From NCBI GenBank assembly GCA_032718475.1, contig JAUCBJ010002889.1, forward strand, positions 1-50,993: 50,993 bases of DNA, read 5' to 3'. The translations under genes were made by a program, and so were the position numbers. The notes beneath the pieces were generated by a model. The model made no database searches. It was not told the DNA's origin and saw only the letters and a list, made by a program, of their open reading frames with translations. This document shows, piece after piece, positions 3,757 through 32,042 of this stretch. The DNA comes from Nemertoderma westbladi (lineage: Eukaryota; Animalia; Xenacoelomorpha). The first letter of the stretch is position 1. Each line of letters begins with the position of its first letter.

Positions 3757-3760
3757 TTAC

Positions 3761-7790: not shown

Positions 7791-8009
7791 ATGACGCATA
7801 CTGTACAGTAACTATATAACCACTAAACTGTGGGGGGGGGGGGGGGGGGGTGGGGCATTCACGTGTCTGCTTGTTGGTGATTGGTTTACAAGTGCTTATA
7901 TAAAATATCTCAAGCTTTTGCAAAACAGGCGGTATATTATAGTGGGTATCGTACAATTACTTTGAAAATGTTTTCAAACAGTTCACGCCAGTCAGTCAAT
8001 CAAAGTGAA

Positions 8010-8068: not shown

Positions 8069-8598
8069 TATATATAAGTAGTTTTTGGTCCACCAAAAAG
8101 TCGACCTTATGGTCGACCAAAAATACTTGTCATAAAAGTACGTGTCCAAACAAGTGTTGGATAGGGTATCCTACATATATTCAGTTACAAAAGGTTCATG
8201 ATAATGTATAATCAACCTTCGGTTGTCACTAAAACTTACAGAAAATGGGTCTCGAATCTTCCGCAGCTACCTACGCCTACTGGTACCATCACATCAGTTA
8301 CACTGGCTAATGCCAAGAATCTTCTTAGCAACAACAGAAGCGACTTGGAGTTGGGAAACATCCCCCATCCTTACTCAATTAATGTTATTTGGCCAATGAG
8401 TAAATTATTTGGTGCAGAAAGTATGTGTTTTGCTAATTTTTTAATGTTTTTTTGGGTAAACTTTAATTGGTTATAGAATTATATTCCCTAAATGCCGTGG
8501 ATTTTCAAAATTTTATTTTATTCGAATTAACTTTGTAAAAGATTGCTTTGAGTCCTCATTTGTATTTGTTATATCTATTGTACGCCTATTGGTCAAGT

Positions 8599-8685
8599 GG
8601 TTCAGTAGCTCAGTCGGTAGAGCGTTGGAAATTATATGTGTAGTAGGTATTGAGTTCGAATCCTAGTAAGTGCGAATTATTTTTT
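8599..8685 (+). promoter_or_regulatory. tRNA-derived Pol III cassette in LTR U3 (second copy 23158-23244)
   Basis: A box TAGCTCAGTCGG (8606-8617) with an intact D-stem GCTC/GAGC, B box GAGTTCGAATCC (8652-8663), and a T6 run (8680-8685). The acceptor and anticodon stems do not pair, so it is not a functional tRNA. Confidence 0.75.
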
Positions 8686-8753
8686 GTGCAGAATTTCAAC
8701 TCATTTAAATTGACCGCTACAAATTAAAGTGCATTTGTTTGTACCTAGATTAA

Positions 8754-8900
8754 CCAATGACACTGTAGTTATTTGATCGTAACCAATGTCGTACAAGTTA
8801 TATATTAGCTGGACCAATAGCTATCTTTAAAAACCTGTTAGAACCTATAGAACAATCGAGAATTTTCTCGATTGATTGCAGCACAAATTTGCTATATAAA
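8754..8900 (+). promoter_or_regulatory. Pol II promoter of the LTR: three CCAAT boxes plus TATA box
   Basis: CCAAT at 8754, 8783 and 8814 (~30-bp spacing), TATATAAA at 8893-8900. Candidate AATAAA signals lie at 9008-9013 and 9591-9596. Confidence 0.7.
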
Positions 8901-10371
8901 GGTGCGATTTGTTCATTAGTTATACTTCTCAGATTATCTTATCTTATCAATATTCTGTCGTGCTTAGTTTATTTCAGATTACATTGTATTATAATTATAT
9001 CTTCTGTAATAAAGTCAGAATTATCGCTAATCTGCCTTTTCTATCTGTTTTACCATGATTCACCACGGTGAACCCAACTAAGGGACAGGATGGCCAGCTA
9101 GAGATCGGGCCGCAGCAATGAACGGGAACATCACGGGAATGTAGACAAGAGACAACCCGCAATACCATCTTGAGTTATTCGCCCATCGCCTGAAAGGTTA
9201 GACAGCGTTCGACGCCTCGCTACCTAAGCGTAAGACCAAAGATCAAAAGGTAGAAGTAGTGACACGCTGTGAGCCTAAAATTACATCTTAGGGACTGTAC
9301 TGTCTTGATTCAGGAAAAAACCACAGTAGACCTTCACATTCCTACGGGGGGAGAACGCAGGCAGATACTAGTACGCAGATAGGACGTAGGCACACCGGTA
9401 CGAAGCATACACATTGGTAGGGTGCAGCAAACTGTACGCCTAACTCTTGCTAAGTGCAGGTGCGTGTGCGACTATTTGTAGTACAACGGTGTCCATTGCA
9501 TTAGAACTTGTAGGCTAGAGGGGTTGCTGTGTTTTCACCTGAATTAGGATTGTACCGTTCAGGCGGTAGGGCAGTTTACAACTAGGCGCAAATAAATTGA
9601 GGCTATTAGGGATATACTAACATCTACCGTGTCCCCGCCAACGCCCTAATAGGAAGTTACCCAGCCTACCTAGGTGACTAAAATTCTAGATAAGAGCCAG
9701 GATAGCTATTAGTAACTGTACGCCTACAGTAGTAAACTAACACATCTCTTCTTAGTATCAGGGACCTGGTACCTAAAATTGCCGAATTCTGGGCGTAGCA
9801 TTAACCTTATGCCTGAATTTGAGTCCTGGAAATACGCAAGAGGGGAAGGAACCTTATCATTCGTGAGTATTGGACCTACAAGTTACAAAATTAGAATATT
9901 CGTAAAATGCACACCGTACCCAGTAATTATATATGTGAAGGAGCAAAACTGCTTTTGACTGTTTAGAATTAACACACACGCGCGTTAGAAATTATTTACA
10001 CCTCAAAATATATAAAATTAACTTTTGTCCGTACTGTGCTTTGCCCGCTAGTTAGACATCTCCAAATCTCTGCCTCTGTACCTAGCTAGCGTCCCTTTGC
10101 CCAACCATATAAATCACACCGCAGCAAAGTATACGAGCCCCTTAGTCCGTCAGTGAGTCAGCCTGATTTTAGGATTCGCTGCGCGGGATTTTGTTTTATC
10201 GAAGTTTGTCTGCTCGTAGACTGTTTTCTGCCTCACCGGTTATAAGAGATCGATACTGCAATATATTCGCTTACTTAGAGTTTATTGTTTTGGTGAGAAG
10301 GTCGGATTTATGATTTGATTCACAAACTTTACAGTAGGATATTGCAGGTATTGTTACTGTCTCTTCGAATA

Positions 10372-10707: not shown

Positions 10708-10998
10708 GTTTCGTCCGCAACGCTGGAAACGGAAAGGTTCACGTTCGGTTTGTATCTGGGAATCTGTTTTTTCTGGAGAATTATTGGAGTGGGTGAGTTC
10801 GAAAAGTTGCATAAATAAGTTAGGCATTACCGTATTAGTTAAAATTATTGTGGTTTCGTCCGCAACGCTGGAAACGGAAAGGTTCACGTTCGGTTTGTAT
10901 CTGGGAATCTGTTTTTTCTGGAGAATTATTGGAGTGGGTGAGTTCGAAAAGTTGCATAAATAAGTTAGGCATTACCGTATTAGTTAAAATTATTGTGG
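10708..10998 (+). repeat. 145-bp tandem duplication in the element's 5' leader
   Basis: GTTTCGTCCGCAACGCTGG...AAAATTATTGTGG occurs twice, with starts at 10708 and 10853. Each copy contains a GG|GTGAGT splice-donor consensus. Confidence 0.92.
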
Positions 10999-11326
10999 GT
11001 TCCACTGTCTCAAGTATTTATGCATTCCGTATGATTTCTTTGTTCATTGCTGAATTAGTCCGTATTATTGTATTTAATTTACCTTTTGATAACGCAAATC
11101 GTTATCCGATTTATTTGTTATAAAATTGGCCGCTAGGCTAATTTTATTATATACTTATTCCGTGACATTTATTTGCTGTAAAATTGGCCGTTTAGGCTAA
11201 TTTTATCCATCTGCTATAAAATCGGCCGGTAGGCTAATTTTATATGACTGTAATTAGTACCGTTTAGATAAAAAACGGTAAGTTTGATACTTTGACACTC
11301 ACTTTACTTGACTTACAACTACCGAA

Positions 11327-13270
11327 ATGAGTGACAAACAAGACTATACGAAGAATACACAAACCGACTATGACTCATGTGACGGAGATAAGTCAGCAGC
11401 GGAAGAACAACAGGGGAAGACTCGCGAGCCTACCGAACCTACACCGTGTGCGTCACCAGTACATCCAACGGGAGTACCGGATGCCGTAGTACGAGGCGAC
11501 GGCAGGACCGAGGACTTTCTAACTGTTCCGCAACCTAGATACAGGGAAACGGACATGGTAAGTTCAGCAGGAAGCCAGGAGAGTGTGGTTAGAAGCGTCG
11601 GAGGTTACATGGCGCATATAACCAGGAGTATTGGAGAAGGCCAACGCATATTAAACGAGTTGACCGCTCCGATGTCTCGATTCGAGTTCTACACCCTCCA
11701 GGTTAGAGTACAAAGTAGAGTACACAAGTCCGTAGATAACCTAATTGGTCTACAAGATCTAGCTAGACAGAGACAGGACATGGATACTCAACTTAGAATC
11801 CTCGAGAAACTAATGATCGCTAGAGAGAAACTGATTCAGTTTAAGTCGACGATTAGGCAGGTACAACAGGAACAAGCGGACCAGTTGTTAGGTGAGTCAG
11901 TTTCGGACGAATTATTACAACCCGAGGAAGAACAGGAACTGTATAGGCTAGATGGACAATTGAAACACCTGACAGATCACTTACGCATGTGCGGCGAGGA
12001 CGTCGGAGATTGGGAAACCGTGCCGGAGGCTACGAGGGAAACTTCGCTCGCACAAATCGAACTGGCACCGGGAACACTAAATCAATCACTGGTGAGTATT
12101 CGCAGCGAAATTGGCGAGGTGAGTATGGCTACGTCAGAAATTGCTCGACAACAGCAGCTCTACAGACAACAACGAGAAATCGAGGAACAAACTCAGTTAT
12201 TGACGTTACAAGCAGCTGTAGAGGAAGATAAACTACGTGTCGCAAATGTTGCGAGAATTTCTCATCTGCAAGAACAAGCTGAGTTGGAAGCAGCCGAAGT
12301 GGAAAGGTTAGAGTTGGACATTGCACAACAAGCGGCAGCGGCCGAGTTAGCGCAACAAACAGCTGCGGCCGAGTTAGAGCGACAAAGGTTAGCTTCAGAA
12401 GCGAGAACCGAAATGAAAACACGGCAAATAAAGGCTCAGTCAGCTATACGACAAGCAGAGTTCGAGGCGCAACAACAACAAACGGAACAACGCGAGAAAG
12501 AAGTTAAACTTCGTTTCGAACTCGAGAAGAAGGCGAGAGAATTAGCCAACACCAACGAAGATCTGGATCTACAAGCCCGCGATCGATCGATGAGATCTCG
12601 AGACGGACATGATTTGGACCAGTTAGAGGTAAGACATCGCCAAATTCAGGAACGAAAGAAGGAAGGAAGCGTAGGAGCACCCGGATGGGAACGACAATTA
12701 GTAAAAGACTTGTGTCAACGATTCCCACAAGTAACTCCTATGTTTGCACCGGTTACGACTAAGGAACCTGTTTCGATTGCTGGTAGTAGTAATATTTCTC
12801 CTATCCATGGTGCGACGGAACACAGGTTTGTTATTCCGGACAAGTTTACACCGCCAAGAGCAACGTCATTGCCTATTCCAAAAGTCAAGGTAAGTAACCC
12901 ACCGATTACAGATCGTAGTAGTTTATTAGTCGGACCTGCACTACTGACGACTAAACAGGTGAGTCCACCTTTGACGCCAAAACCTGTTACACACTACGCT
13001 TACCCAATGACGTTTAGGCCAACAAGGCCTTTGGATTCAAACGCTGTCGTCCGACCACCGGTCCAGTTTACATCGCAATCTACGACTTCGAGGAAGACTT
13101 GTGAGCCTACCGAACAACGGAGATCAGTGGATACGCGACCGTTCAACCAGTGTACATCGCAATCTACGACTTCGAGGAAGACTTGTGAGCCTACCGAACA
13201 ACGGAGAACAGTGGATACGCGACCGTTCAACCAATTTACATCGCAATCAGACTTCGAGGAAGACTTGTGA
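11327..13270 (+). CDS. gag: N-terminal part of the BEL/Pao Gag (coiled-coil, Q/E/A-rich), frameshifted from the rest of the polyprotein
   Basis: ATG-initiated 647-aa ORF inside the element. Its TSRKTCEPTEQ repeat continues in the next ORF's frame after a net 2-nt loss near 13249. Confidence 0.8.
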   Translation: MSDKQDYTKNTQTDYDSCDGDKSAAEEQQGKTREPTEPTPCASPVHPTGVPDAVVRGDGRTEDFLTVPQPRYRETDMVSSAGSQESVVRSVGGYMAHITRSIGEGQRILNELTAPMSRFEFYTLQVRVQSRVHKSVDNLIGLQDLARQRQDMDTQLRILEKLMIAREKLIQFKSTIRQVQQEQADQLLGESVSDELLQPEEEQELYRLDGQLKHLTDHLRMCGEDVGDWETVPEATRETSLAQIELAPGTLNQSLVSIRSEIGEVSMATSEIARQQQLYRQQREIEEQTQLLTLQAAVEEDKLRVANVARISHLQEQAELEAAEVERLELDIAQQAAAAELAQQTAAAELERQRLASEARTEMKTRQIKAQSAIRQAEFEAQQQQTEQREKEVKLRFELEKKARELANTNEDLDLQARDRSMRSRDGHDLDQLEVRHRQIQERKKEGSVGAPGWERQLVKDLCQRFPQVTPMFAPVTTKEPVSIAGSSNISPIHGATEHRFVIPDKFTPPRATSLPIPKVKVSNPPITDRSSLLVGPALLTTKQVSPPLTPKPVTHYAYPMTFRPTRPLDSNAVVRPPVQFTSQSTTSRKTCEPTEQRRSVDTRPFNQCTSQSTTSRKTCEPTEQRRTVDTRPFNQFTSQSDFEEDL

Positions 13271-13297
13271 GCCTACCGAACAACGGAGATCAGTGGA
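13062..13297 (+). repeat. 84-bp tandem repeat (about 3 copies) within gag
   Basis: TACATCGCAATCTACGACTTCGAGGAAGACTTGTGAGCCTACCGAACAACGGAG recurs at 84-bp and then 82-bp spacing. Confidence 0.93.
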
Positions 13298-16200
13298 CGA
13301 TGTTCCGAAACGAAACGTTAGAATTCGTACGACGCAACGGACGCGAGCACGTCGACCACCATATCCAGATGATAGTAGTACTTCGAGCGAATCGGATTAC
13401 CCGAAACGCGAGGTATTTAGAACAGGGGCGGCCGATGAATATAAACGCGAGCGTTCAGACAACTCCTTTGTAGACAATCCTCCACAGAATACACCAACAC
13501 AGAAGGCGTTACAACCAACGGACGCAATCAGTACTCAACAGTTCGCCGACATCCTGCGACCAGTTGTTAACAAGTTGGCTCAGATCGAGGAACGTCTGGA
13601 GGAAGTTCAAACCGATAGTTCGAGGAACACTGAATTCGAACACAATAGACACCCGAAGGAACCACAAAGACCGGTACCTTCAAAACACCCATCGTATCAG
13701 GGAAAAGCGCCAAGAAGGGAGAATATCCGCCAGACTACCAACCAAGGACGCGAAACTCTGAACGTTGCCGAGGAGATAGCGAAATTCGCAGCCAGACAGG
13801 GATTGCCGGTGCAACAACCACCGAAGTTTTCCGGTAGCTCAAAACACTGGCACACTTTCGTAGACTATATCGAATCCCAGATCGCCGTGTGCGCCTTTAC
13901 ATCACGGGAGAAGTTTAATTACCTGCTCCAAACGTTGTCAGGAGAACCTAAACGTTTGGCAGAGACCTTCGTTGGTGTACCGGACGCCTTCGAACTAGCG
14001 TATGATCGTTTAACTTCGATATACGGAGGTACAGTCAGTATGGCCAGGTCAGTGATAGAAGAACTCTGTAAGGGAGGGGCTATCACTAAACCCGTCGACT
14101 TATTAAAACTGGCCGACGAGATAAAGAACGCTATCACTACTTTAAGATCCATTGGACAACTTGACTACGGGAATACCCCTACAGTCCTATTAAAGATCAT
14201 AGGACGACTCCACCATCGACTTCGTCGGGAGTGGAGAAAGATCGAAAACCAGCGAGAAGAGCGGGGTGGATTCTTAAAACTGGAGGATGTGTACCTTTTA
14301 ATATCCAGGGAGGCAGTAGTAGAAACTCGATCCAACTACACTGACCAGCACATCGTGGCAGAAGGAATCACATTGCCATCCTCCAACCGACAAAAACCCC
14401 AGACAACATCCACCAAGACGGCCACATACGCCACATCGACGGAAACCCGACAATTCTCGGACGGAAGTAGGGTATCTGCGCCCATTGGGACGAAACAGAC
14501 GAGACAGCAACTCAGTACCGACTTCAGCGGCTGCCAATACTGCGAGCATTTAGGCAAGCGGTATATCGGTCACAAGTTACGAAGTTGTCGACAGTTTCGC
14601 GAGTTGAACTCGGAAGAACGACGGCTGCAGATACGGCCATTGGACTCTTGTTGGCGGTGTACGCGACACGGACACGTCCGTAAAGATTGCCCAAATACCG
14701 ACACTTGTCCATTCTGTGGACGCAACCACGACGGTCTGCTCCACACAGACAGCCACACACCGACAAAACGCTTCGCCAGGGAACACCCGGAAGCAGCAGC
14801 GAGATGTGATGCGGCCTACAGAAAACGAGAATCGAAAACGACTCCAACCTTCGTGACCCATATTGAGGATTGCTTCTCAGAACAATCCGGATCGTCGGAC
14901 GAAGAGTCAGAAGACGACGACGTATATTCGGATGGAGATGAACACCCATCGATCGCGCTTCTGACTACTGACCAACTGAAGGGATTCAGTGTAATTCCGA
15001 TTAAGATTACTGGCACAAAGGGGAGTAAGAGAATCTACGCTATTCTAGATTCAGCCTCATCTCACAGCTACGTGGACGAGCAGATAGCTGACGTCGTGAC
15101 GGATCTCAGACAAGGTAAGCGCGTCAGTTATACCGTAAGTAGTATGCACGGACAGCGTGCAATACCAGTGACACGAGTTAAGTTGGACTTAGACACTCTT
15201 CTTCCAAAATCGCAACACAGCGAGAGGGAGAGGTCTTTGTTACCCTTCAAGGATCTGACTTTTGCGGCCACCAAAGACTTTAGTAACCTACTAGGTCCGG
15301 TCCCAGAACAATCCTTGGAGGACCGTAAGTATTTCAGACACCTTGGTGTACCTGAATGTCCTGTCAATTATAGATCGGTAGCCATGCTGATCGGGACGGA
15401 CCAATTCAACCTACATCAGGTGTGGGAAACCAGACCATCGGCAGTCGTAGCGGGAAACGCATACGCCTGTAGAACGCCGATAGGGTGGTATACTCGAGCG
15501 CCTGTGCGCACACTGGACATAAGTGACGAGGAAGACGATGTACAAAGTACATGTAGTTTATTAACTACAAATTCAATTCATTCCTTTTCACACGACGTGG
15601 ACCATACTACCTTACATACCAGACATGACAGACGTGTAACTAGTATGATAAGTCACAAGGAGCAGCTAACCCACCAGGTGAGTTTAGAACTTGGGGAGAA
15701 GACGAGTCAGTCAGAGATTCCATCGACGACAGATAATAACGCCGGAAGGCTTGCGAGTCTACCTACCCCAACGACCTCAACAATGCCCGTCGATATCGAT
15801 GATGACGCGTTGAAAATTCACCAATTGGAACAAGCTGTATTGGACAAAGAATTAACGGAGAAGACTATCAGGTGGTTAGAACAAGATACAGCTGAACCTG
15901 GTAGCTATGAACCATGTATGTCGGAACAGGAGAAACAATCTTTGAGGATCATGGAAGATACTATCCGCCAGACGAAAGACGGACATTATGAGGTGGGGAT
16001 GTTATGGCGTAGCCAAAGTCCTAAACTTATAAATAACTACCCACTAGCTCTAAGACGTCTACACTCAATACGGCAACGTCTATTAAAGGACGAGAAAGCC
16101 CATCTGCAGTATAACACTCAGATGGAGACGTATTTGACAAAGGGATACGCTATCCGAATGACTAACCCGGAGCGAGTGACTGACCAGACGTACTACTTGC

Positions 16201-19200
16201 CACATCACTACGTAAGACACCCCGACAAACCAGACAAAGTACGAGTAGTCAATGACTGTGCGGCTCTGTTTGAGGGAATGTCCCTCAATAGCGAGTTGAT
16301 GGATGGACCAAACATGAATAATTATCTTATGGGGGTGATTATGCGCTTCCGTCAGCGTCAAGTAGCTTTTACTTGCGACGTTGAAGCGATGTTTCACCAA
16401 GTGAGAGCGTTAGAGCGAGACAGAGACAGTTTGAGGTTCCTCTGGTATCCGGAAGGAGACTTAAGTCTACCACCGGCGACTTACCAAATGCAAGTTCGCG
16501 TTTTCGGTGCCAGGGACAGCCCAAACTGCACGATGTACGCCCTAAAACAAGCCGCTAGGGATCAGAAACACCTGTATGACCCAGAGATAATTAGGATTGT
16601 GGAACGTGACTTCTACGTCGACGACGGATTACAGAGTTGCGATACAGTAGAACGTGCTACAACAGTAGCACATCAATTACGGGACTGCTTAGCGGGCGGA
16701 GGTTTTAACCTCACCAAATTCGCCTCAAACAGTGCCGAATTAGTAGACTCATTCGGAACGACTGAGCGTGGAGGTGGTGACATAGACCTAGAGTTCGAAC
16801 CACTACCGACGACCAAGGTGATGGGGCTCTTTTGGGACCCAAACACGGACAACTTTCGAGTGAAAGTGAGACTGGACAGTCAAGAAAACACACTGACAAA
16901 GAGATCATGCTTGTCAAAATTGAGCCGATTGTTCGATCCATTAGGATTCATCAGTCCAGTAATACTGCAAGCTCGCATTTATATGCGCAGTATTTGGAAG
17001 GATGGACTGACATGGGACGAGCCGATCTCATCAGACCAAGTGGACTTATGGAAGACCTGGGAAGCGGAATTATCTTCGCTAGAGGATTATTCCATACCCA
17101 GAGTTTACTTTCCATTACAAACAACATTTCCTGACAACTTGGAATTACACTGTTTTTCTGACGCCAGTGACAACGGCTTTGGTGTGGCAGCGTACTTGCG
17201 CAGACAAGTAGACTCAGAAGCATTCGATGTTTCGCTCATTACTTCTAAGGCAAAAACAATGCCTACTAAGTATATGACGACACCACGAGCTGAGCTACAA
17301 GCCGCAACCCTGTCAACCACCATCGTGAACCTTATACAGACAGAACTACAGTCAAGTTTACAGATATTTTATTGGACTGACGCGACGTTGGTTTTATTTT
17401 ACATAAACAATGACACACTTGAATTCAAGACATTCGTAGCTAACCGTCGCGCAGAAATTCTAGACCGTTCAATAAAAGAGGATTGGCGAAATTGTCCCGG
17501 ACCACAAAACCCAGCTGATATTGCGTCGCGAGGAATGATGCCTGAGGAATTCTGTAAACCGGAGAACAAAGAATTTTGGCAACACGGACCCCAATTCTTG
17601 CAGAAATCGATGCAAGATTGGCCACCGTTATATGACAACAAGTCTAACACCATCCCTAAGGACGCCGAAATCAAGAAACCAAAAAAGGGGAAGGCAAAGA
17701 AAAAGACAACGGTGGCAAAACTCAAGAAAAAACCGAAGGCGAAATGGAAAGCGATAACTTCAAAGGTCAAGAGAGGAAGACTTGCGAGCCTTTCTACACC
17801 AGACATATCGCCAGACGGTCAAACAGACACGTTACTAGACAGCCAACCAGACATTTTGCCAGACATATCACAAAATGTTCTACCAGACACTAGTGACATA
17901 TTGACAAATAGTAAAGCCGCAGTTTCTCTATTGGAGCGGCCTTCTATTGACAAACAACCAGATACGTTACCAGACGTATCGCCAGACACGTTACTAGACG
18001 GTCAACCAGACGTTTTGCCAGACACGTCACTAGATATTTCGCCGGATGTTCCGCGAAACATTTTACCAGACATGTCACAAAATGATATACCAGACACTAG
18101 TAACATATTGATAAACAATAAAGCCGCAGTTTCCCTATTGGAGCGGCCTTGTATTGACAAACTACCAAATTTGACACACTTGAGCAACCATAAGCACGGT
18201 GAAACCTCATGTATTACAGATGTGGGTAGTACCTACGCTAATGTAAATACAGGTGTTACTCTGCGCTCAAGAGACATACCGAACTTACAACCTATGGTGA
18301 AACCTGGGATTAATATCGGCAGAAAAATAAGCTTACCGAAACCCACTGACCCCATAGAGTTCAAACCACCATTAACGATCGACTTACAAGGTACTGACAA
18401 TCAAGGTAAGAAGACGAAGAAGGACAAATTACTTGTAGACCCGGACGGATCAACAGTCAACAAGGGAATACTTACCGGCGGACCCGTGGGCCCTTCTAGT
18501 AAATCAAAACCTTCCAAAATCTCCATTGACTTACCTGATGACGTCACAAATACTCACGTCGACCGTATTGTAAACCTAACAGACTCTTGGACGAACGCTT
18601 GCCGAAAATTAGCGTGGATTGTACGTTTTGTACAATACGTTAAAGGCAAACGCGACTTTACACGTCGACTTACATTGGCTGAGATTGACAGGTGTGAAAT
18701 TAAATTAATTCGCCATTACCAACTGCGATATTTCGCACGCGAATTCACATCTATAAATCAAGGCCTACCAATCAAGTCGTCACCAATACTGAGTTGGAGT
18801 CCGATAATTTATAATGGCTTACTTTGTCATAAATCTCGGCTTCAAAACATTGACCTTAACACAAACTTTAGATACCCTATAATAATACCACAACATCACG
18901 AACTACAACGTGCAATGATACTGGACGCACATTTGCATCTGAAACACGCTGGAAGACACCACTGTCTTTCCTACTTACGTACAAGATTTGTATTAATTAG
19001 ACCCAGTAAAGCGTTAAGTTCAGTGACACGTACGTGTATTATTTGTAAAAAGGTACATTCTAGAATAGGTACCCAAGAAATGAGTGAACTTCCACAAGCA
19101 CGACTTCAAGCATTCAGACCACCTTTTACAGAGACTGGAATTGATTGCTTTGGTCCCATACATACGAAACGTGGACGTATACTAGTAAAACGCTGGGGAC

Positions 19201-20066
19201 TGATTTTCACATGTATGTCCAGTAGGGCAGTTCATATTGAACGTGTGATGGATCTTTCCACCAACGCGTTTATACTAGCATTGCGGCGATTTATCGCTAG
19301 ACGCGGACTAGTGAAATGCTTGTACTCAGACCAAGGGACAAACTTTGTTGGTGCTCGAAATGAGATTACTAGAGCCTTTAAGAAATTAGATCATGATCAA
19401 ATCTCGAACGAACTACAACCTCACAAGATTGTTTGGAAGTTTAATCCTCCAGATAGTCCATGGAGAGGCGGAGTCTGGGAGAGATTGATTAGATCTATAA
19501 AGACAGCCATGGCAAAGGTCATTCCAGTAAACCACATACTGACAGACGACCAACTGACAACATTGTTTGTTGAAATCGAGGCAATACTAAATACTAGACC
19601 AATAGTATTAGTACCCGATGACAAACAATCTCAGTTCGCTTTGACACCGGCACACCTGCTTATGCAGGCACCGACAACTTTGACGCCTATTTCTATTCCA
19701 ATAGAAAGCGATAGCTACGGTAGAAAAGCGTGGAAAATCACGCAACTACTAGCTAACAAATTCTGGGAAATATGGCAAAACCATTATTTGCCCTCTATTT
19801 CTGCCAGAACAACTTGGTACAATAACACCCGCGCATTAAAGCCGGGAGATCACGTGCTGTTAGCGGAAGTGTATCTAAAAAGACGCTTCTGGATAACAGG
19901 TGTAATTTTAGCCACACATCCATCTATGGATGGAGTGACAAGAACTGTGACAGTACGGACAATTGACGGTCGTACAGTTGACAGACCGACTCAACGTCTC
20001 GTACTTCTTGAAGAGACTCGTAACGAGTCTGGAGACTACAAATCTCCACCTAATACTAGTAAATAA
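13101..20066 (+). CDS. pol: BEL/Pao Gag-Pol polyprotein (capsid, 3 Zn knuckles, protease, RT, RNase H, integrase)
   Basis: Knuckles CQYC..H..C, CWRC..H..C, CPFC..H..LLH. Protease ILDSAS. RT YLPHH, RVVNDC, DVEAMFHQ, FGARDSP, FYVDD. RNase H HCFSDAS, PRAELQAA, YWTD, NPADIASRG. Integrase HHCC, GIDCFGP, SDQGTNF, GGVWERLIRSIK. Confidence 0.96.
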   Translation: MSLPNNGDQWIRDRSTSVHRNLRLRGRLVSLPNNGEQWIRDRSTNLHRNQTSRKTCEPTEQRRSVDDVPKRNVRIRTTQRTRARRPPYPDDSSTSSESDYPKREVFRTGAADEYKRERSDNSFVDNPPQNTPTQKALQPTDAISTQQFADILRPVVNKLAQIEERLEEVQTDSSRNTEFEHNRHPKEPQRPVPSKHPSYQGKAPRRENIRQTTNQGRETLNVAEEIAKFAARQGLPVQQPPKFSGSSKHWHTFVDYIESQIAVCAFTSREKFNYLLQTLSGEPKRLAETFVGVPDAFELAYDRLTSIYGGTVSMARSVIEELCKGGAITKPVDLLKLADEIKNAITTLRSIGQLDYGNTPTVLLKIIGRLHHRLRREWRKIENQREERGGFLKLEDVYLLISREAVVETRSNYTDQHIVAEGITLPSSNRQKPQTTSTKTATYATSTETRQFSDGSRVSAPIGTKQTRQQLSTDFSGCQYCEHLGKRYIGHKLRSCRQFRELNSEERRLQIRPLDSCWRCTRHGHVRKDCPNTDTCPFCGRNHDGLLHTDSHTPTKRFAREHPEAAARCDAAYRKRESKTTPTFVTHIEDCFSEQSGSSDEESEDDDVYSDGDEHPSIALLTTDQLKGFSVIPIKITGTKGSKRIYAILDSASSHSYVDEQIADVVTDLRQGKRVSYTVSSMHGQRAIPVTRVKLDLDTLLPKSQHSERERSLLPFKDLTFAATKDFSNLLGPVPEQSLEDRKYFRHLGVPECPVNYRSVAMLIGTDQFNLHQVWETRPSAVVAGNAYACRTPIGWYTRAPVRTLDISDEEDDVQSTCSLLTTNSIHSFSHDVDHTTLHTRHDRRVTSMISHKEQLTHQVSLELGEKTSQSEIPSTTDNNAGRLASLPTPTTSTMPVDIDDDALKIHQLEQAVLDKELTEKTIRWLEQDTAEPGSYEPCMSEQEKQSLRIMEDTIRQTKDGHYEVGMLWRSQSPKLINNYPLALRRLHSIRQRLLKDEKAHLQYNTQMETYLTKGYAIRMTNPERVTDQTYYLPHHYVRHPDKPDKVRVVNDCAALFEGMSLNSELMDGPNMNNYLMGVIMRFRQRQVAFTCDVEAMFHQVRALERDRDSLRFLWYPEGDLSLPPATYQMQVRVFGARDSPNCTMYALKQAARDQKHLYDPEIIRIVERDFYVDDGLQSCDTVERATTVAHQLRDCLAGGGFNLTKFASNSAELVDSFGTTERGGGDIDLEFEPLPTTKVMGLFWDPNTDNFRVKVRLDSQENTLTKRSCLSKLSRLFDPLGFISPVILQARIYMRSIWKDGLTWDEPISSDQVDLWKTWEAELSSLEDYSIPRVYFPLQTTFPDNLELHCFSDASDNGFGVAAYLRRQVDSEAFDVSLITSKAKTMPTKYMTTPRAELQAATLSTTIVNLIQTELQSSLQIFYWTDATLVLFYINNDTLEFKTFVANRRAEILDRSIKEDWRNCPGPQNPADIASRGMMPEEFCKPENKEFWQHGPQFLQKSMQDWPPLYDNKSNTIPKDAEIKKPKKGKAKKKTTVAKLKKKPKAKWKAITSKVKRGRLASLSTPDISPDGQTDTLLDSQPDILPDISQNVLPDTSDILTNSKAAVSLLERPSIDKQPDTLPDVSPDTLLDGQPDVLPDTSLDISPDVPRNILPDMSQNDIPDTSNILINNKAAVSLLERPCIDKLPNLTHLSNHKHGETSCITDVGSTYANVNTGVTLRSRDIPNLQPMVKPGINIGRKISLPKPTDPIEFKPPLTIDLQGTDNQGKKTKKDKLLVDPDGSTVNKGILTGGPVGPSSKSKPSKISIDLPDDVTNTHVDRIVNLTDSWTNACRKLAWIVRFVQYVKGKRDFTRRLTLAEIDRCEIKLIRHYQLRYFAREFTSINQGLPIKSSPILSWSPIIYNGLLCHKSRLQNIDLNTNFRYPIIIPQHHELQRAMILDAHLHLKHAGRHHCLSYLRTRFVLIRPSKALSSVTRTCIICKKVHSRIGTQEMSELPQARLQAFRPPFTETGIDCFGPIHTKRGRILVKRWGLIFTCMSSRAVHIERVMDLSTNAFILALRRFIARRGLVKCLYSDQGTNFVGARNEITRAFKKLDHDQISNELQPHKIVWKFNPPDSPWRGGVWERLIRSIKTAMAKVIPVNHILTDDQLTTLFVEIEAILNTRPIVLVPDDKQSQFALTPAHLLMQAPTTLTPISIPIESDSYGRKAWKITQLLANKFWEIWQNHYLPSISARTTWYNNTRALKPGDHVLLAEVYLKRRFWITGVILATHPSMDGVTRTVTVRTIDGRTVDRPTQRLVLLEETRNESGDYKSPPNTSK

Positions 20067-20726
20067 TTAGGAGTTTACAAATAGATTTCCACGTACCTGT
20101 ACACCGTAGTAAGGACAGCGGTAGAATTCCATTGTCTTTATATGTGAACATTGAGGGTGGTACCCTTATGTGTCACATAGGAGCGGGATTTGTAGGTATA
20201 AGAAATGGAATTCTACTTGGAACTCACAATATTGAGACATTTTCGAAATTTTAGACAATCCATTTGGATTTGAAAAATTTTTAAAAATTTTCTCCAGTGA
20301 ATAGATTTCAGGGTACAGTCGGGTGGAACTTAAAATTAGAGAAACAAGAGAGGAAGACTTGCGAGCCTTTCTTAAAATTTTAATTAAAATTTTACACGGT
20401 CTTGTTTCAATAAGTTACGTCAAAATAGACTCCCCTATATTTATTACTAATTCTTGACTGCTTATTTTCTGATAATAGTTTGGGATCAAAAAGTGAGTAT
20501 TTTAGACTCACAGCCAGTTTAGCCCAAATTCGTTTTTATTTCGGCAAAAATTTTAGATAAGAAGCAGCGTGTCATTAAAGAAACCCTAGATCTTAGGCTA
20601 TGGGTAGGAGGTTAGAGCGTTGTCGAGCCCAAAGGGCAGACGAAACTCTCACGTCTCCTCACAACTAACTACAAACTCTGTTGTATTCCCTCTAGTAGTA
20701 ATGATTATGTAACTACACCCCTAATT

Positions 20727-21560
20727 ATGGAGAAAGGGATACAAGGAGAGCCGAGATGGGGATATGATATCCAAGAGGAGGCAGCAGCGCCATTCGAAAG
20801 ATTTGGAGCCAAGGATTATACTATATTCGGTATAAAAGAATTATCGGAAAGTACAGCGAAACTCGCGAGAACTAAATATGACTCAAATGTATTAAAGAGA
20901 AGGCAAAACGCATTAAACGAAAGAATCGAAAGTTTGCGCCAAACCTTCAACGAACTTTACCCGTACGACGCTTTGTGTGATACGGGAGACATTAGCGAAG
21001 ACCCCGATACTGAAATTAGTCGTTTGTATCATACCATGCAATACCTAAAGGCGCACGAACCTATGCCCGCGGTAAGAGATGAATTTGATGGAATGCATCT
21101 TTACAGACGAACTCGAGGGGACGATAGAGAAACAAAGGAAGCATTTTCAGTTTATAAACTTTATTATCAATGCGGTTCTTGTATGCGTGAACAACGAAAT
21201 GCGATTCCGATGCGTTTGAATAAGGAAAATCCCGAACCGATATTGGCGAGGTGTTCGAACCATCAACAACTACGCTACCAGGAAGGAGGGTATCCTTTAT
21301 CAAATCCATATCATTCGTTTGCTATGACCGGACCAAAGGCGGGAGAAACTGTCGTTTACCCACCTAAGGTTGTTGAACCCGATGCATTTGAACTTACGCT
21401 GGACGAGGCGAATCAGTCAACCCGCAAAAGAAAGAAGCTCTTAGCCTATACAGAGCCTACAAGGCTTTCGAGAAAGGTGAGATGGAAGAATGGGGCAGAA
21501 GACTCGCGAGCCTACCTTACCATTGGACGTCACACGATCAAACGCCAGCTAAGGAGATGA
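20727..21560 (+). CDS. Accessory ORF3 of the retrotransposon (277 aa, unknown function, CxxC...CxxH motif)
   Basis: ATG-initiated sense ORF between pol and the 3' LTR. Contains YYQCGSC...ARCSNH and basic TRKRKK. No signal peptide or TM segment is visible, so it is not a typical env. Confidence 0.7.
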   Translation: MEKGIQGEPRWGYDIQEEAAAPFERFGAKDYTIFGIKELSESTAKLARTKYDSNVLKRRQNALNERIESLRQTFNELYPYDALCDTGDISEDPDTEISRLYHTMQYLKAHEPMPAVRDEFDGMHLYRRTRGDDRETKEAFSVYKLYYQCGSCMREQRNAIPMRLNKENPEPILARCSNHQQLRYQEGGYPLSNPYHSFAMTGPKAGETVVYPPKVVEPDAFELTLDEANQSTRKRKKLLAYTEPTRLSRKVRWKNGAEDSRAYLTIGRHTIKRQLRR

Positions 21561-21596
21561 CACCCGAAATTTTCGAAAGTATAAATTTTGCCCAAA

Positions 21597-22064
21597 ATGT
21601 TCAATCGTATCACATATGGTGAATTTGATCGGTTTCGAACGGAAAAGCGAAACAAGGGAGCTTGGTTAACCGTCGCATGGGCGTACCGAGCCGCATTCTA
21701 CCATAAACGTATACGAGCGAGCGTATTCGAGGAAGAGGAGGTCCTAGAGGCGACGAATATACCAGCCACCCCGGTTGCGCCGTCTGCACGTCACCCTCGG
21801 GAGGACGGACAGGGTAGGATCATACGGGTCCAGAAAGTGGGCCAACAATTAAAGAAAATTATTAATATAGAAGAACGCAAGGGAGTTGAGCCGACCATTC
21901 GAATTACTCGGGATACGGTATCGCTTCCTAGAGAACCAATAGGAGGATCGGGACATACACCAGCTGATCAACAGGGGGCGCAAGCTACTCTTGGGTCTGC
22001 GTCGTCCGCTTCTCGCGCGTTCCCAGACGTTCTACCAACTGTAGTGACAACTGATCGGTCATGA
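21597..22064 (+). CDS. Accessory ORF4 (basic, unknown function); frame stays open to 22238 after one TGA
   Basis: Same frame as ORF3, ATG at 21597. After TGA 22062-22064 the frame continues for 57 codons, ending FRGRGRARSTKR* (22238). Confidence 0.5.
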   Translation: MFNRITYGEFDRFRTEKRNKGAWLTVAWAYRAAFYHKRIRASVFEEEEVLEATNIPATPVAPSARHPREDGQGRIIRVQKVGQQLKKIINIEERKGVEPTIRITRDTVSLPREPIGGSGHTPADQQGAQATLGSASSASRAFPDVLPTVVTTDRS

Positions 22065-22299
22065 GGAATTGGTCGAGGTTTTGGGATGCCAAATAGACGA
22101 ATTTGCGAGGAAATAGTCGCACCGTCTCTCAACGTCCAAACGAAACCAGTGACTCGCCCCACGAGTCCCATATCGCGAGCAAAGTCACCTGTGCGCAGTT
22201 TTCGAGGACGCGGCAGGGCTCGATCCACTAAGCGATAAAAGGGAGGGCAAGGGTGGACGGAAGACTCGTGAGCCTTTCTTATGATTTTGTGATTTATTT

Positions 22300-22800
22300 G
22301 AATTTATATTTATATTTGTGTTTATTCCGAACTTATGCAATTTGTATTGTTCCGAATTTATGAAATTTAGAAATAAGAACTTATATTTAGTAAAACTTAT
22401 ATTTAGTAAAACTTATATTTAGTAAAACTTATATTTAGTAAGACTTATATTTGTAAGAATTTATATTTTATATTTGTAATTATTCCGAACTTATGCAATT
22501 TATATTATTCCGAACTTATGCAATTTATATTGTTCCGAATACTATGCAATTTATATCTTGTAAGCAGTATTTGTATTTACAGTGAAATAGAAAGTAAGAG
22601 TAGATGGAAGACTCGTGGGCCTTTCTTATAGTTTCATTTGTAAAGTGTTATATTTTGTATTTAGAAAGTTTTATAGTTAGAAAGTTTTGTGCTTAGAAAG
22701 ACTCATATTTGTAATTATTCCGAACTTATGCAATCTACATTTAGGCACGAAAGTATTTGTAATTATTTGAATTTATGCAATATTTGAGATGCAATAGATT
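22300..22800 (+). repeat. AT-rich short tandem repeats in the element's 3' non-coding region
   Basis: AAACTTATATTTAGTA (16 bp) about 4 times and TTCCGAACTTATGCAATTTATAT about 6 times. Confidence 0.85.
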
Positions 22801-23030: not shown

Positions 23031-24937
23031 TATAGAATTATATTCCCTAAATGCCGTGGATTTTCAAAATTTTATTTTATTCGAATTAACTTTGTAAAAG
23101 ATTGCTTTGAGTCCTCATTTGTATTTGTTATATCTATTGTACGCCTATTGGTCAAGTGGTTCAGTAGCTCAGTCGGTAGAGCGTTGGAAATTATATGTGT
23201 AGTAGGTATTGAGTTCGAATCCTAGTAAGTGCGAATTATTTTTTGTGCAGAATTTCAACTCATTTAAATTGACCGCTACAAATTAAAGTGCATTTGTTTG
23301 TACCTAGATTAACCAATGACACTGTAGTTATTTGATCGTAACCAATGTCGTACAAGTTATATATTAGCTGGACCAATAGCTATCTTTAAAAACCTGTTAG
23401 AACCTATAGAACAATCGAGAATTTTCTCGATTGATTGCAGCACAAATTTGCTATATAAAGGTGCGATTTGTTCATTAGTTATACTTCTCAGATTATCTTA
23501 TCTTATCAATATTCTGTCGTGCTTAGTTTATTTCAGATTACATTGTATTATAATTATATCTTCTGTAATAAAGTCAGAATTATCGCTAATCTGCCTTTTC
23601 TATCTGTTTTACCATGATTCACCACGGTGAACCCAACTAAGGGACAGGATGGCCAGCTAGAGATCGGGCCGCAGCAATGAACGGGAACATCACGGGAATG
23701 TAGACAAGAGACAACCCGCAATACCATCTTGAGTTATTCGCCCATCGCCTGAAAGGTTAGACAGCGTTCGACGCCTCGCTACCTAAGCGTAAGACCAAAG
23801 ATCAAAAGGTAGAAGTAGTGACACGCTGTGAGCCTAAAATTACATCTTAGGGACTGTACTGTCTTGATTCAGGAAAAAACCACAGTAGACCTTCACATTC
23901 CTACGGGGGGAGAACGCAGGCAGATACTAGTACGCAGATAGGACGTAGGCACACCGGTACGAAGCATACACATTGGTAGGGTGCAGCAAACTGTACGCCT
24001 AAGGCCTAACTCTTGCTAAGTGCAGGTGCGTGTGCGACTATTTGTAGTACAACGGTGTCCATTGCATTAGAACTTGTAGGCTAGAGGGGTTGCTGTGTTT
24101 TCACCTGAATTAGGATTGTACCGTTCAGGCGGTAGGGCAGTTTACAACTAGGCGCAAATAAATTGAGGCTATTAGGGATATACTAACATCTACCGTGTCC
24201 CCGCCAACGCCCTAATAGGAAGTTACCCAGCCTACCTAGGTGACTAAAATTCTAGATAAGAGCCAGGATAGCTATTAGTAACTGTACGCCTACAGTAGTA
24301 AACTAACACATCTCTTCTTAGTATCAGGGACCTGGTACCTAAAATTGCCGAATTCTGGGCGTAGCATTAACCTTATGCCTGAATTTGAGTCCTGGAAATA
24401 CGCAAGAGGGGAAGGAACCTTATCATTCGTGAGTATTGGACCTACAAGTTACAAAATTAGAATATTCGTAAAATGCACACCGTACCCAGTAATTATATAT
24501 GTGAAGGAGCAAAACTGCTTTTGACTGTTTAGAATTAACACACACGCGCGTTAGAAATTATTTACACCTCAAAATATATAAAATTAACTTTTGTCCGTAC
24601 TGTGCTTTGCCCGCTAGTTAGACATCTCCAAATCTCTGCCTCTGTACCTAGCTAGCGTCCCTTTGCCCAACCATATAAATCACACCGCGGCAAAGTATAC
24701 GAGCCCCTTAGTCCGTCAGTGAGTCAGCCTGATTTTAGGATTCGCTGCGCGGGATTTTGTTTTATCGAAGTTTGTCTGCTCGTAGACTGTTTTCTGCCTC
24801 ACCGGTTATAAGAGATCGATACTGCAATATATTCGCTTACTTAGAGTTTATTGTTTTGGTGAGAAGGTCGGATTTATGATTTGATTCACAAACTTTACAG
24901 TAGGATATTGCAGGTATTGTTACTGTCTCTTCGAATA
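23031..24937 (+). repeat. 3' LTR (1907 bp)
   Basis: Direct repeat of the 5' LTR, with an extra 7 bp near 24001 (GCCTAAGGCCTAAC). Preceded by a short purine-rich GGAGCGG (putative PPT) and followed by TTGGT. Confidence 0.95.
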
Positions 24938-25687
24938 TTGGTAGCTCTTTCTTCATTACCAACTCAGGCCGGTTTTGCAAAGGCTGGAAATATTTTATAT
25001 ATGTCACGCAAGCCAGTCGTCAAAAAGCAGAGACGTGATTGGTGCAAGTATGTTGTTCAGCTTCCCAGTGGATGGTTACAAATTTTGGGATTTCTGTCCA
25101 ATGGAATTTCATTGCTTGGCCTGTTGAGAAAGCCCTCATAGATGCGGGGCGAAAACTACCGATCATCTCACTGCCGTCAGCTGATCGTCAGCTGATCACT
25201 AATGCAACTCTATAATAAATATTATATTGATTATTGTTCCCTCAAGCTTTATTTACTTCAAAAAGATATAACTGTTGTAAACGTTGATAAGGAATGATAT
25301 TGATGTAACATTATTTTGCAGTTACAATAACAACTGTACGGTGATACAGGCTTATACTTTGCGTATGGCAACGGCTATCATTCAAGCATTCACAAATAAT
25401 AATTGGTAAATGTTGTTTCTAAGTTGTTTTTACTTTTCTGCGTTTCGAACTAAAGGCGCTAACGCTGCAAAGTATTACTTTTCAACGTTGCGAGTATTTC
25501 TCCAGAGCTCTGAGAAGTTGGCAAAATGTAACAATAACTATTTACATCATTGTGTGCAAAGTAGCCCTTTGCAGCGTTATGACCCGAGTTTATTTATGTA
25601 CGGAGCGAGCGCAGCGAGGGAGGTTTTCATAAATAAACAAGGGTCTTTCACGGTGAAAAGTGACCTTTGCAAGCAATGGTGTATGTA

Positions 25688-26262: not shown

Positions 26263-26305
26263 AAATGATATTAAATCAGCATAAAAATAATGAATATTAA
26301 CTTAC

Positions 26306-26572
26306 CGGGTTTTTCTGTTACTGTTACTCCAGCACTATGTACTCCATTGGCTATAGAATAGACGTCAACAGATACGTTAGCTTCCCACGTACCATCCGCT
26401 ATACAATATCCGCTTTTGTTGGTTGTTACATTATCACAATTAAAGTCTGTAGTACCAGAGGTTGGTGACACTTTGTACGAATCCACACTCCCATTAGTTG
26501 GTTCATCCCAGGATAGATACATAAACGCTGGGGGTATGAACTCAAGCGTTACGTCTTGAGGATCATCGGGAA
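26306..26572 (-). CDS. FN3 host gene exon (1 FN3)
   Basis: 267 nt, catag|...G|gtaagt. Reads VPDDPQDVTL...YLSWDEP...VDSYKV...VYSIANGVHS. Confidence 0.85.
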
Positions 26573-27639
26573 CTATGAAAAATAAATAAAAAAAAGTGTC
26601 ATTCATAAATAATGTTGTTTCAGTTATGACGTGTGACTTGTATGAGGCAAAGTATGTAATGTATCTGCATCTGCAATGTATTACCCGAAGGGTGAATAAA
26701 CTGCTGCGAACTGTTTCACACGACATTGATTATACAATTTTAATTAATATACAAATATATTTTGAGAAATCCTCTACAAGTGAAAAAGACAAAAATAACA
26801 GCTGATCACCACCAAATATATAACTGTATCCTGTCATTGACATGCATTTATTGTTTTGGTTATTACTAGCATATGCTGCTGCTCCATTCCCTTAATTAAA
26901 AATTAGCATTATTACCACCCCCCCCCCCCCCCCCCCCCTCTCGCTGTCTGAACAGGCTATACCTCAGATCGGTCTCAACAGTAATTCAGCAATATCTCAT
27001 AAATTTAACAAAGATGTAATAATTTGTATTGTGGGCCATCTTTAAATTACGCAACGCAATGAATAGGGGGCGGGGGAGGGGGGGGGGGGGGGGGGGGGGG
27101 GTGGGCTATATATCACAACATAATGTGATATAGAGAGAAATGGGTACGGAAAAACTTACACACCAATATTGTATCGTAAATTCAAGTCAAATAAATTCCA
27201 ATCAAGTAGATTACCCATACCCAATTCAAAAACTTTCAATTTGGTGCCCAGCCTGTCAGCCTATAGTCTGACTTACCACATTATTGTCAAATATAGGCAA
27301 CGGTAAGTAGAGTACTGTAGGCCAGTAGAACAAAGATTTAATGTTTAAAGCCTACATAGAGGATCTCCAAATAGCAAAAAAGAAGTGAAGCCTGCATATG
27401 GAGGTGGAGAGGCAGTAGCAATGCCAGTCATTAGCATAACTGACCAATTGAGCTGCAGATGGGAATAAACTATATGGCCTATAGCCAAAACAGACCTCAT
27501 TTTGTCCTAATATACAAGCCTTAATATATATTAAAATTAAAATATTATTAACAATTATTTTGGTATTCAATCGTTTTATTAGCTCGCTCACTGGGATTCT
27601 TAGTCATTATAAAAGTGTAAACAGATAGGCCCATTAAGC

Positions 27640-27717
27640 CATGGACTTCTAGAATATAAATTTATACCAATATGTATAAATATGTGCAATGAATAAATAC
27701 CATTCTAGAAGTCCATG
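27640..27717. mobile_element. 78-bp mini-MITE with 16-bp TIRs and 7-bp TSD
   Basis: CATGGACTTCTAGAAT...ATTCTAGAAGTCCATG, flanked on both sides by ATTAAGC. Confidence 0.8.
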
Positions 27718-27797
27718 ATTAAGCTTATCCAGTAATCACTGTGATTAATGTAATGTTCTTAAACTTGGAACATTTTGCATGACACGACATATGGGAT

Positions 27798-27842
<45 letters not shown>
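27798..27842 (+). repeat. Poly-G tract (others at ~7832-7855, ~26918-26938 as poly-C, ~27066-27101)
   Basis: Homopolymer runs visible directly. Confidence 0.95.
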
Positions 27843-27844
<2 letters not shown>

Positions 27845-27846
27845 CG

Positions 27847-28070
27847 CCCATGTGAAGAATAGCAGGTTTTAATTTCAGTCGAAATTTTATTTAAATCTCA
27901 AATGAAGTATTTGTATTTTTTTTGAATTTACCCTTTAAGTGTTTTAAAGCGGTTTAGTTATATCTTATAACCTGTTTGATACTACTTCGTTTACTGTTTT
28001 GGCTTGAGTCAGCCATTCTGTAACCTGGGTTTTTTTTAGTGAAAACCTTATCTTATATTCTTCACATGGG
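27847..28070. mobile_element. Possible MITE with 15-bp inverted repeats
   Basis: CCCATGTGAAGAATA ... TATTCTTCACATGGG; no clear TSD. Confidence 0.5.
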
Positions 28071-28415
28071 AATAATGGCAAAGTGAAATATAACAGCAGA
28101 AAGTCTGGTGTAGTTCACAGGGGCCTCAAAAATCGTCCAAAAAGCGTTTACGTAGCTTATGTTCGATCGGTTAGATCGGCTTAAAAACCAGAAACAAAGT
28201 TATTGAGTTAATGTGAAATTACAAATCGATAGTAATATGCAATCTATGGCCGACCATCACCCCAGGAGTGTATAACAAACAATATGATGATTTGATTGTC
28301 ATTCGTGTGATGAGATATAAACGATGGAAATTATAATAGACATTCAATGACTGCATGTATCAATAATGTATTCATTATATATGTATTTCAGTCAAAGCGA
28401 TGTCTGTTTATAAAC

Positions 28416-28697
28416 CTGTGGCTATTGAACCATCAATGAATTCAGTAGAGTGATTGGTACCAAAAATCCAGTTATATAGAACCCCAGAGTATAATGTATG
28501 GAAAGTGTAATTGTAATCATCAAAAGGAACTGAGACTTCCTCGGAGTACTCAAGGTTAGTTGATACAGACTCCAAGCTGATGTTTATATTCGAATACGGG
28601 GTGCTGGTATTGTGGGTGGCATTGGAGAGAGGAGACCATGAGAAGGTTACAGTGGTTGTGGTAGACGTTACAACTGGAATCGGGACTTCTAAAGGCT
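28416..28697 (-). CDS. FN3 host gene exon (1 FN3; not in the ORF track)
   Basis: ttttttag|AG CCT...ACA G|gttt, 282 nt. Reads PLEVPIPVVTSTTTTVTFSWSP...YTFHTLYSGVLYNWIF. Confidence 0.8.
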
Positions 28698-29413
28698 CTA
28701 AAAAATGCCAATGGATGTTAGGAATATTCAGTAATTGTAGACTTTGATAGTTCCTTTATTATTAATTATGAAACATGTTGAATGTAATTTGTTTTGTTAG
28801 GAAAGAGAATAGGCACAGGCAGACAAATAAATCGTACATATACATAGTACCGGTATTTAAATGAAAAATATACCTGAAATTAAAAAGTACAAAGGTGAAA
28901 AAATACATCCAAATTGGTGTAAATGTTGCCAAAATTAATGCTGATAGAATATTACATTATAAAGGTGAGTTGGTAAGTTTATACACCTCGACCCAGAGTA
29001 ATACAGTGAGTCCAATAGGTTCCCTTTGTGTGATGGAAAATCAGTAATTAATCTAACTATCAGTTAATTATTAGTTTCTCTGAAAACATTCAATATGTAT
29101 TCCAAATAAATATCAATGGTGCAAATTCCATTTGCACCTCATTCATGTGTCTGTATGATGTTGTGTGTGCATGTGAATGTGCACTATAATCAGTGATCTC
29201 ACAAGCAAGCGGTGCCAACAGACAAGACAGATGCCATCGTAAAAGCTATAAATATTGTCATGAGTATATAGATATGATCCAAGGTGTACTTAAATCACAT
29301 AAAAATAACAAATTATGGTGCCCCAATGAGGTAAGGTGGTTTAAAATAACCAGTGTTTCATTTGTGCCACATAAACTAAAAACAACAGCAAGACACACCC
29401 ACGTTTAACCTAC

Positions 29414-30259: not shown

Positions 30260-30487
30260 CTACATAAAGAAAAATGTGAAAATATTAAGTCGGGCACAAA
30301 TATTTGGTTTAAAAGTTGCATCAAATTTCGATAAAGAGAACAAAATGAAGAAACACAAAAACATGTCATTATTTTTATTTTAAGAAAATATATTCGAATT
30401 ATCTTCCTAGAACAACAAAAAGGAAATACTGAGGAGGATAGACCAACAAAAATGAAACTAATTAATTAAGAAGATAATAAAACTCAC

Positions 30488-31970: not shown

Positions 31971-32042
31971 ACGAATAGTGAACAATTTGTGTGTATAAAT
32001 CGAACCAAAAACAATCACAAGGTACAGTTACGTGTAACCTAC

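Follow-up and report, generated by a model that had tools for sequence, protein, structure and literature searches.

A dispersed 20-nt near-palindrome in a BEL/Pao retrotransposon of Nemertoderma westbladi, with an orphan element-encoded protein as its candidate partner

Why should a retrotransposon carry the same short near-palindrome again and again along its body, inside its genes as well as between them? The question is raised by contig JAUCBJ010002889.1 of the xenacoelomorph Nemertoderma westbladi (assembly GCA_032718475.1), a stretch of 50,993 nt (hereafter the window) that holds a BEL/Pao long terminal repeat (LTR) retrotransposon of about 16.5 kb, with all copies of the motif lying between its LTRs (coordinates are those of the window, + strand unless stated). 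Our analyses indicate that the array is real and lineage-specific and that it is probably selected; that the motif is a selected cis-element of some kind seems to us very likely. We favour, with a probability of about 0.32, the reading that it is a site on the sense RNA of the element for the protein of its own third open reading frame (ORF3), which would aid the export of unspliced genomic RNA. Taken more broadly, an element acting at the level of RNA is slightly better than an even bet, a site acting at the level of DNA is rather doubtful and neutrality is improbable.

The first-pass annotation had listed ten copies of the motif. A pattern describing the 20-nt near-palindrome does return ten + strand matches, starting at 11415, 13092, 13176, 13258, 15744, 17775, 20352, 21497, 22259 and 22606 and exact in 9/10 cases, against a mean of 0.02 and a maximum of 1 in 100 dinucleotide shuffles; the inexact copy, with A at position 1, had been placed one base late, at 21498 instead of 21497. 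Counting dispersed 20-mer families without a consensus, we obtained 8 clusters in the internal region, while none of 60 shuffles exceeded 3. The list was nonetheless incomplete, since a structure-only descriptor uncovered an eleventh, diverged copy at 18477 that is 16/20 identical to the one at 22606. None of 300 shuffles yielded a site with at least 14 identities plus the structure, and a covariance model built on 8 copies puts 18477 directly after the ten, with an expectation value (E) of 0.007. The conserved unit is 20 nt long and its length is constant in 11/11 copies. As first noticed, all ten listed copies match in the same orientation, yet the one at 15744 scores nearly equally when reversed (29.2 vs 24.7). 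Pattern and covariance-model scans found no copy in the LTRs or the flanks, in agreement with the earlier claim that the internal region alone holds full copies; the 5′ leader is also free of the motif, the first copy being met 1,043 nt beyond the 5′ LTR, within ORF1. Among the Rfam covariance models no family corresponds to the motif, the only hit being RydC (E 0.71), below its gathering score and off the motif copies. A perfect 8-bp hairpin at 18951-18970, within the conserved integrase zinc motif, has the outer stem of the motif around a CCAC loop; it has an E of 0.26 and was left out of the count.

The placement of the copies bears on the level at which they are maintained. Eight of the 11 fall within ORFs and three outside + strand ORFs. 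The first (11415-11434) has a CGCG centre and reads KTREP, and the next three (13092-13277) have TGTG centres and form one tandem array of 84/84/82 nt at the overlap of ORF1 and ORF2. Three copies then lie in Pol: the fifth (15744-15763), a G6/T15 variant with a TGCG centre, in a lineage-specific insertion immediately before the reverse transcriptase (RT); the sixth (17775-17794) in another such insertion between RNase H and integrase; and the diverged seventh (18477-18496), which has two compensatory pairs and retains both the A6/C15 mismatch and the YGYG centre. The alignment columns of these three are occupied by 0/24 relatives, 24 being the number of relative proteins, out of 120 listed, that the Pol alignment took in; a search with the linker before RT turned up no shorter relatives of that region. 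The eighth copy (20352-20371) is non-coding, between pol and ORF3; the ninth (21497-21516) lies close to the end of ORF3 and reads EDSRAY; and the last two (22259-22278 and 22606-22625, the latter a G13 variant) are in the 3′ untranslated region. The coding copies are thus read in three codon phases, GRLASL in phase 0, KT[RC]EP in phase 1 and EDSRAY in phase 2, exactly as had been proposed. We also considered a protease-cleavage peptide, as GRLASL stands at two Pol junctions, and rejected it: the motif also occurs in other frames and in non-coding DNA, the copy at 18477 encodes GGPVGP, and a single match, put down to chance, was seen among the 120 listed Pol relatives. The earlier conclusion that the motif is maintained at the nucleotide level is well supported by the three frames, the non-coding copies, the lineage-specific insertions and its retention beside diverged flanks.

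The number of copies is not the number of independent events. Besides the tandem array, a duplicated unit of 50 nt (78% identical) is common to the copies at 22259 and 22606, and the 28-nt identity reported between pol and the non-coding copy holds good (17768-17795 equals 20345-20372); because these three relationships link copies to one another, the ten repeats, real as they are, go back to only about 6 independent origins. One may therefore ask whether the array arose neutrally, by tandem duplication and template switching at a sequence prone to form hairpins, with reverse transcription homogenising the copies, which would survive only where insertions are tolerated. In line with this view, 7/11 copies fall in visible duplicated units and the Pol copies sit within lineage-specific insertions; moreover, in family members the site at 22259 varies (at 1% or more) in 0/20 motif positions against 6/61 positions of its upstream flank, a difference that is not significant (Fisher p 0.33). 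The likeness between distant copies nevertheless ends at the edge of the motif, with 0-4 flanking letters shared for most pairs, the length is the same in all copies, and three codon phases are used. The family is abundant, with diverged copies in public DNA runs (16,857 contigs of run X1 aligned to the element), and contigs of runs X3 and X4 keep the motif next to a diverged upstream flank, about 5/17 letters of which are alike in X4, where the loose end shows the first 9 motif letters only. On balance we hold a wholly neutral origin to be quite improbable. Under our favoured reading the same duplications and template switches would have spread the copies, which would then have been retained wherever the proteins tolerate them. 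Other family members carry an additional motif copy near 22797. Runs X1 and X2 also contain a joint that skips 15795-17718 (RT and RNase H), with 23 other letters in between, which suggests a non-autonomous derivative.

If the motif is a cis-element, what might recognise it? It is tempting to look to ORF3 (20727-21560), a 277-aa orphan and candidate binder that combines a Cys3His motif (C149-x2-C152-x23-C176-x2-H179) with a nuclear-type RKRKK signal at 233. Database searches gave no homolog of ORF3 apart from one spurious match to a designed protein, and tblastn against 80 distant BEL/Pao loci gave none; its structure models are of low confidence, with a predicted local distance difference test (pLDDT) score of 37.5 and 48.2. 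ORF3 is probably translated from a spliced RNA. A predicted 9.9-kb GT..AG intron (10793-20695) would remove gag-pol, join the leader to ORF3 and take out 8/11 copies, and one contig of the public DNA run X4 joins 10791 to 20695 with GT..AG ends and 24 letters on the short side, which suggests a reverse-transcribed spliced ORF3 RNA. The joint matches a consensus donor and acceptor with a branch point, 31 nt upstream of the ORF3 start, and the element has just one other strong acceptor region, at 10612. No RNA run was listed as holding the element, which carries no information about its expression. A perfect 145-nt duplication in the leader (10708-10997) doubles the splice donor (10793 and 10938).

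Since ORF3 would come from spliced RNA, as is partly shown, the genomic RNA must retain the 9.9-kb intron; and since splicing would remove gag-pol, the genomic RNA therefore needs a route out of the nucleus, as in Cer1. In this Gypsy-type element of C. elegans, the CERV protein is made from spliced RNA, is nuclear, has a KRKK signal and a Cys loop and is required for the export of genomic RNA, according to the available part of the report (PMC10309623). If spliced as predicted, the candidate described here would share with CERV and with Rev of the human immunodeficiency virus (HIV) the origin of an accessory protein in spliced RNA, a nuclear signal (KRKK), a motif rich in Cys, and an intron that has to stay in the genomic RNA (PMC10309623, same part). 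The differences are that our element belongs to BEL/Pao and that ORF3 lacks a detectable homolog; that the same part of the report names no cis-element for CERV, whereas a candidate site is visible here; and that Rev binds a single structured region, its response element (RRE), whereas 11 short copies are dispersed along our element. Two novelties occur together in one lineage, a nuclear-type orphan protein made probably from spliced RNA and a conspicuously repeated site, and the most economical link between them would be that the protein binds the site. ORF3 would then coat the unspliced genomic RNA and help it to leave the nucleus, the motif acting as a weak RNA stem, with its A6/C15 mismatch and YGYG centre, that a protein, presumably ORF3 itself, would stabilise. 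The RKRKK signal, the Cys3His motif, the GT..AG joint and the parallel with CERV all speak for this reading, and so, weakly, does the variation between copies. G10 and G12 are invariant among the 8 distinct copies, whereas the centre positions 9 and 11 toggle between C and T; in the 8 usually paired columns (3-18 and 6-15 set aside) 63/64 cells are paired on the sense strand vs 52/64 on the antisense strand; and changes on both sides of a pair occur at two pairs, 4-17 and 8-13, both in copy 18477. The covariation score was equalled in 18/500 shuffles for the sense strand and in 318/500 for the antisense strand. The copy at 15744, in which the 6/15 asymmetry is reversed, is predicted to pair with most other copies at -26 to -31 kcal/mol (-20 with 18477), far more strongly than these do among themselves.

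Several results weigh against the export reading. The two mismatch columns were set aside post hoc, and with all 10 columns the proportion of paired cells is 84% for sense and 78% for antisense. None of the direction tests reaches significance (columns 5:2, p 0.23; events 7:2, p 0.09; centre only, p 0.06-0.125). Under random decay all 8 pairs survive in 8-15% of trials, and the number of Watson-Crick pairs in 18477 is matched in 4-6%; the terminal sense pair is broken in 21497. The hairpin itself is marginal, at 0 to -2 kcal/mol for 7/8 distinct copies folded as 20-mers, and in a 170-nt context it is predicted in 1/9 sense copies vs 4/9 antisense copies. As for the splicing, the joint comes from one contig whose 24-letter side has 80% likeness, a class that the tool used rates as unreliable. 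Furthermore, the predicted intron makes up 78% of the internal region, so that the 8/11 copies within it amount to no enrichment, and this weakens the case for a role in marking the intron alone. The first-pass annotation had expected the variants to preserve the dyad: most do keep pairing in the sense RNA, and 18477 does so with two compensatory pairs, yet each test taken singly is weak (p 0.04-0.2). Both of its alternatives, an RNA hairpin and a DNA operator, still stand, and the variation leans weakly to sense RNA.

A double-stranded DNA site for a dimeric ORF3, acting as an anti-silencing factor of the VANC type or as a transactivator, with sites every 0.3-2.5 kb keeping the body of the element open, is unlikely in our view, although it ranks close behind the favoured RNA reading. 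Operators typically take the form of a conserved palindrome of fixed length around a variable centre, and the motif is 85% conserved, constant in length and variable at its centre; the weakness of the RNA hairpin and the nuclear signal and Cys3His motif of ORF3 fit this reading as well. On the other side, the mirror-image centre (CRCR type) appears in 0/8 distinct copies, though a symmetric dimer would allow it, 18477 is altered in both half-sites at the same two positions, and the LTR and 5′ leader have no copy (a chance of about 0.13-0.28 by our own estimate). The comparison with VANC, already drawn in the first-pass annotation, holds in part. As described in the available part of PMC5735166, the motif of the Arabidopsis VANDAL elements is specific to the family, is repeated many times in one orientation, has multiplied through tandem repeats and adjoins an element-encoded accessory gene, which is also the arrangement seen here; the same part gives VANC motifs as 8-9 nt long and mainly non-coding, in a plant DNA transposon, whereas our near-palindrome has 20 nt, occurs in an animal LTR element and falls for the most part in coding linkers. 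The ratio of observed to expected CpG is 1.16 in the element vs 0.78-0.84 in its flanks, and 0/80 distant loci reach 1.16 (median 0.81), a loose control as these come from other hosts. Such CpG richness suits an anti-methylation reading and likewise an unmethylated invertebrate transposon. Against the VANC-like reading, CpG hypermutability is not seen in the family: 8/29 top transitions are of CpG type, about 23% being expected, and they split 4:4 between the strands, so that CpG decay is unsupported as the source of the motif variants.

A third possibility is that the copies are dimerisation or packaging signals, each self-complementary site pairing with its counterpart on a second genomic RNA, with the help of the Gag zinc knuckles, so that two RNAs are zipped together. 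Of all the readings it is the best predictor of the direction of change at the centre, as duplex pairing alone predicts C>U opposite G; mirror centres would pair less well (-3.8 to -10.3 vs -8.2 to -20.5 kcal/mol), and 18477 keeps its self-duplex (-19.0) while its cross-pairing is mostly weaker. The putative spliced copy is found as DNA, which suggests that an RNA retaining only the 3′ copies had been reverse-transcribed. Duplexes are predicted at -8 to -31 kcal/mol, where the background is -5.4 +/- 2.8, which is expected of any palindrome. Any palindrome self-pairs, however, and the mean duplex energy is alike on both strands (-18.6 vs -18.1 kcal/mol); the TGTG copies pair weakly (-8.2), and self-pairing alone would explain neither the likeness of the copies nor the retention of the A6/C15 mismatch. 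Precedents are PAL1/PAL2 of Ty1 (PMC6844567; PMC4974528), the pseudopalindromic dimerisation initiation site (DIS) of HIV and that of Moloney murine leukaemia virus (MoMuLV) (PMC7599994), and dispersed packaging signals (PMC6281560), as presented in the available parts of these sources. They are alike, including the packaging signals of MS2 and hepatitis B virus, in being self-complementary RNA sites that can either fold into a weak hairpin or pair between molecules, with a recognition motif common to several sites. The palindromes known from retroelements cluster in the 5′ leader, those of the DIS/PAL type next to the primer site, whereas here the leader is avoided and near-identical copies run along the whole body. 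Considering also that the motif is absent from distant BEL/Pao loci, we rate this explanation as less probable again than a DNA site.

How far does the array extend beyond this family? In the 80 distant BEL/Pao loci the motif was found in 0/80 (best E 0.38), ORF3 and ORF4 were found in none, and a scan of viral contigs gave 0 matches; the joint absence of the motif and of ORF3/4 from these loci would fit an export site bound by ORF3. A de novo search of the same 80 loci for other dispersed 20-mers detected none with at least 5 clusters (2 loci with 4 and 10 with 3, against 8 in our element), a search weak in power, as the gag-pol span of the element alone yields 3 and most loci measure 3-11 kb (one locus entered with its first 15 kb). 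A literature search brought up no description of such an array in BEL/Pao elements, most subscription journals lying outside its coverage.

The element that carries the array is otherwise a recognisable member of BEL/Pao (Belpaoviridae), with LTRs, a 5-bp target duplication and DUF1759, Peptidase_A17, integrase and DUF5641 in the usual order; it differs from its relatives in being about 16.5 kb long, in having TA..TA termini, in its two additional orphan ORFs and the large insertions in Pol, and in carrying the motif array. One substitution and one 7-nt indel separate the 5′ LTR (8472-10371, 1,900 nt) from the 3′ LTR (23031-24937), and a target-site duplication of 5 bp (8467-8471 and 24938-24942) flanks the pair; the insertion is therefore young. 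LTR elements of the BEL/Pao type usually have TG..CA termini and a primer site starting with TGG; here the LTRs start with TAT and end with ATA, and no TGG opens the sequence that follows the 5′ LTR. A stretch of U3 at 8591-8680, with its counterpart in the 3′ LTR, looks like a transfer RNA (tRNA), with A-box-like and B-box-like words recognised by eye, and is not called by ARAGORN, which calls no tRNA, or by Rfam. ORF1 (11327-13270) encodes a Glu/Gln-rich protein of 647 aa without Pfam match, upstream of ORF2 in another frame. ORF2 (13011-20066) is the gag-pol frame, in the Pao-type order gag, protease, RT, RNase H and integrase, with matches to DUF1759 (PF03564), Peptidase_A17 (PF05380), Integrase_H2C2 (PF17921, below its cut-off) and DUF5641 (PF18701); it has 761 relatives at E<=1e-30, the best ones only 44% identical over the RT-RNase H region. 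Where the two ORFs overlap (13011-13312), the frame changes within the tandem array of 84/84/82 nt, perhaps by programmed frameshifting or perhaps through a lesion peculiar to this copy. Between RNase H and integrase, an array with a 12-nt period (17798-18170) encodes a Pro/Asp-rich insertion. ORF4 (21597-22064) is a basic orphan of 155 aa without Pfam or Atlas match. Around the element, inverted arms of 34 nt, 88% complementary, at 7897-7930 and 24968-25001 bracket the retrotransposon as if it had inserted into a small inverted-repeat element. Minus-strand ORFs at 26271-35473 and 3726-4397, which by eye have the look of fibronectin type III repeats, with an exon block repeated over 29376-35473, lie on either side, and the retrotransposon seems to stand antisense within an intron. 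The window also holds an 11-kb satellite with a 42-nt unit (38537-49518) and two related elements with long inverted arms (991-1799 and 37577-38154) that resemble miniature inverted-repeat transposable elements.

By analogy, the motif and ORF3 may work like known element-encoded systems made of a protein and its site. Leaving aside the choice between RNA and DNA, we would put at even odds a private system in which a spliced orphan zinc-binding protein acts on a 20-nt site copied into tolerant gaps, including the linkers of the polyprotein, and marking RNA or DNA for export or for a shield against silencing. If so, it would be the BEL/Pao counterpart of Rev and CERV with a visible dispersed response element, or the animal retrotransposon counterpart of VANC. 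How the LTR retrotransposons of invertebrates export their intron-containing genomic RNA, choose what to package and escape silencing are largely open questions, and here one young, abundant family carries both a candidate site that is short and exact and a protein that is a candidate to bind it. The array, which enters the linkers of Pol in different frames, shows a cis-signal overriding the coding sequence.

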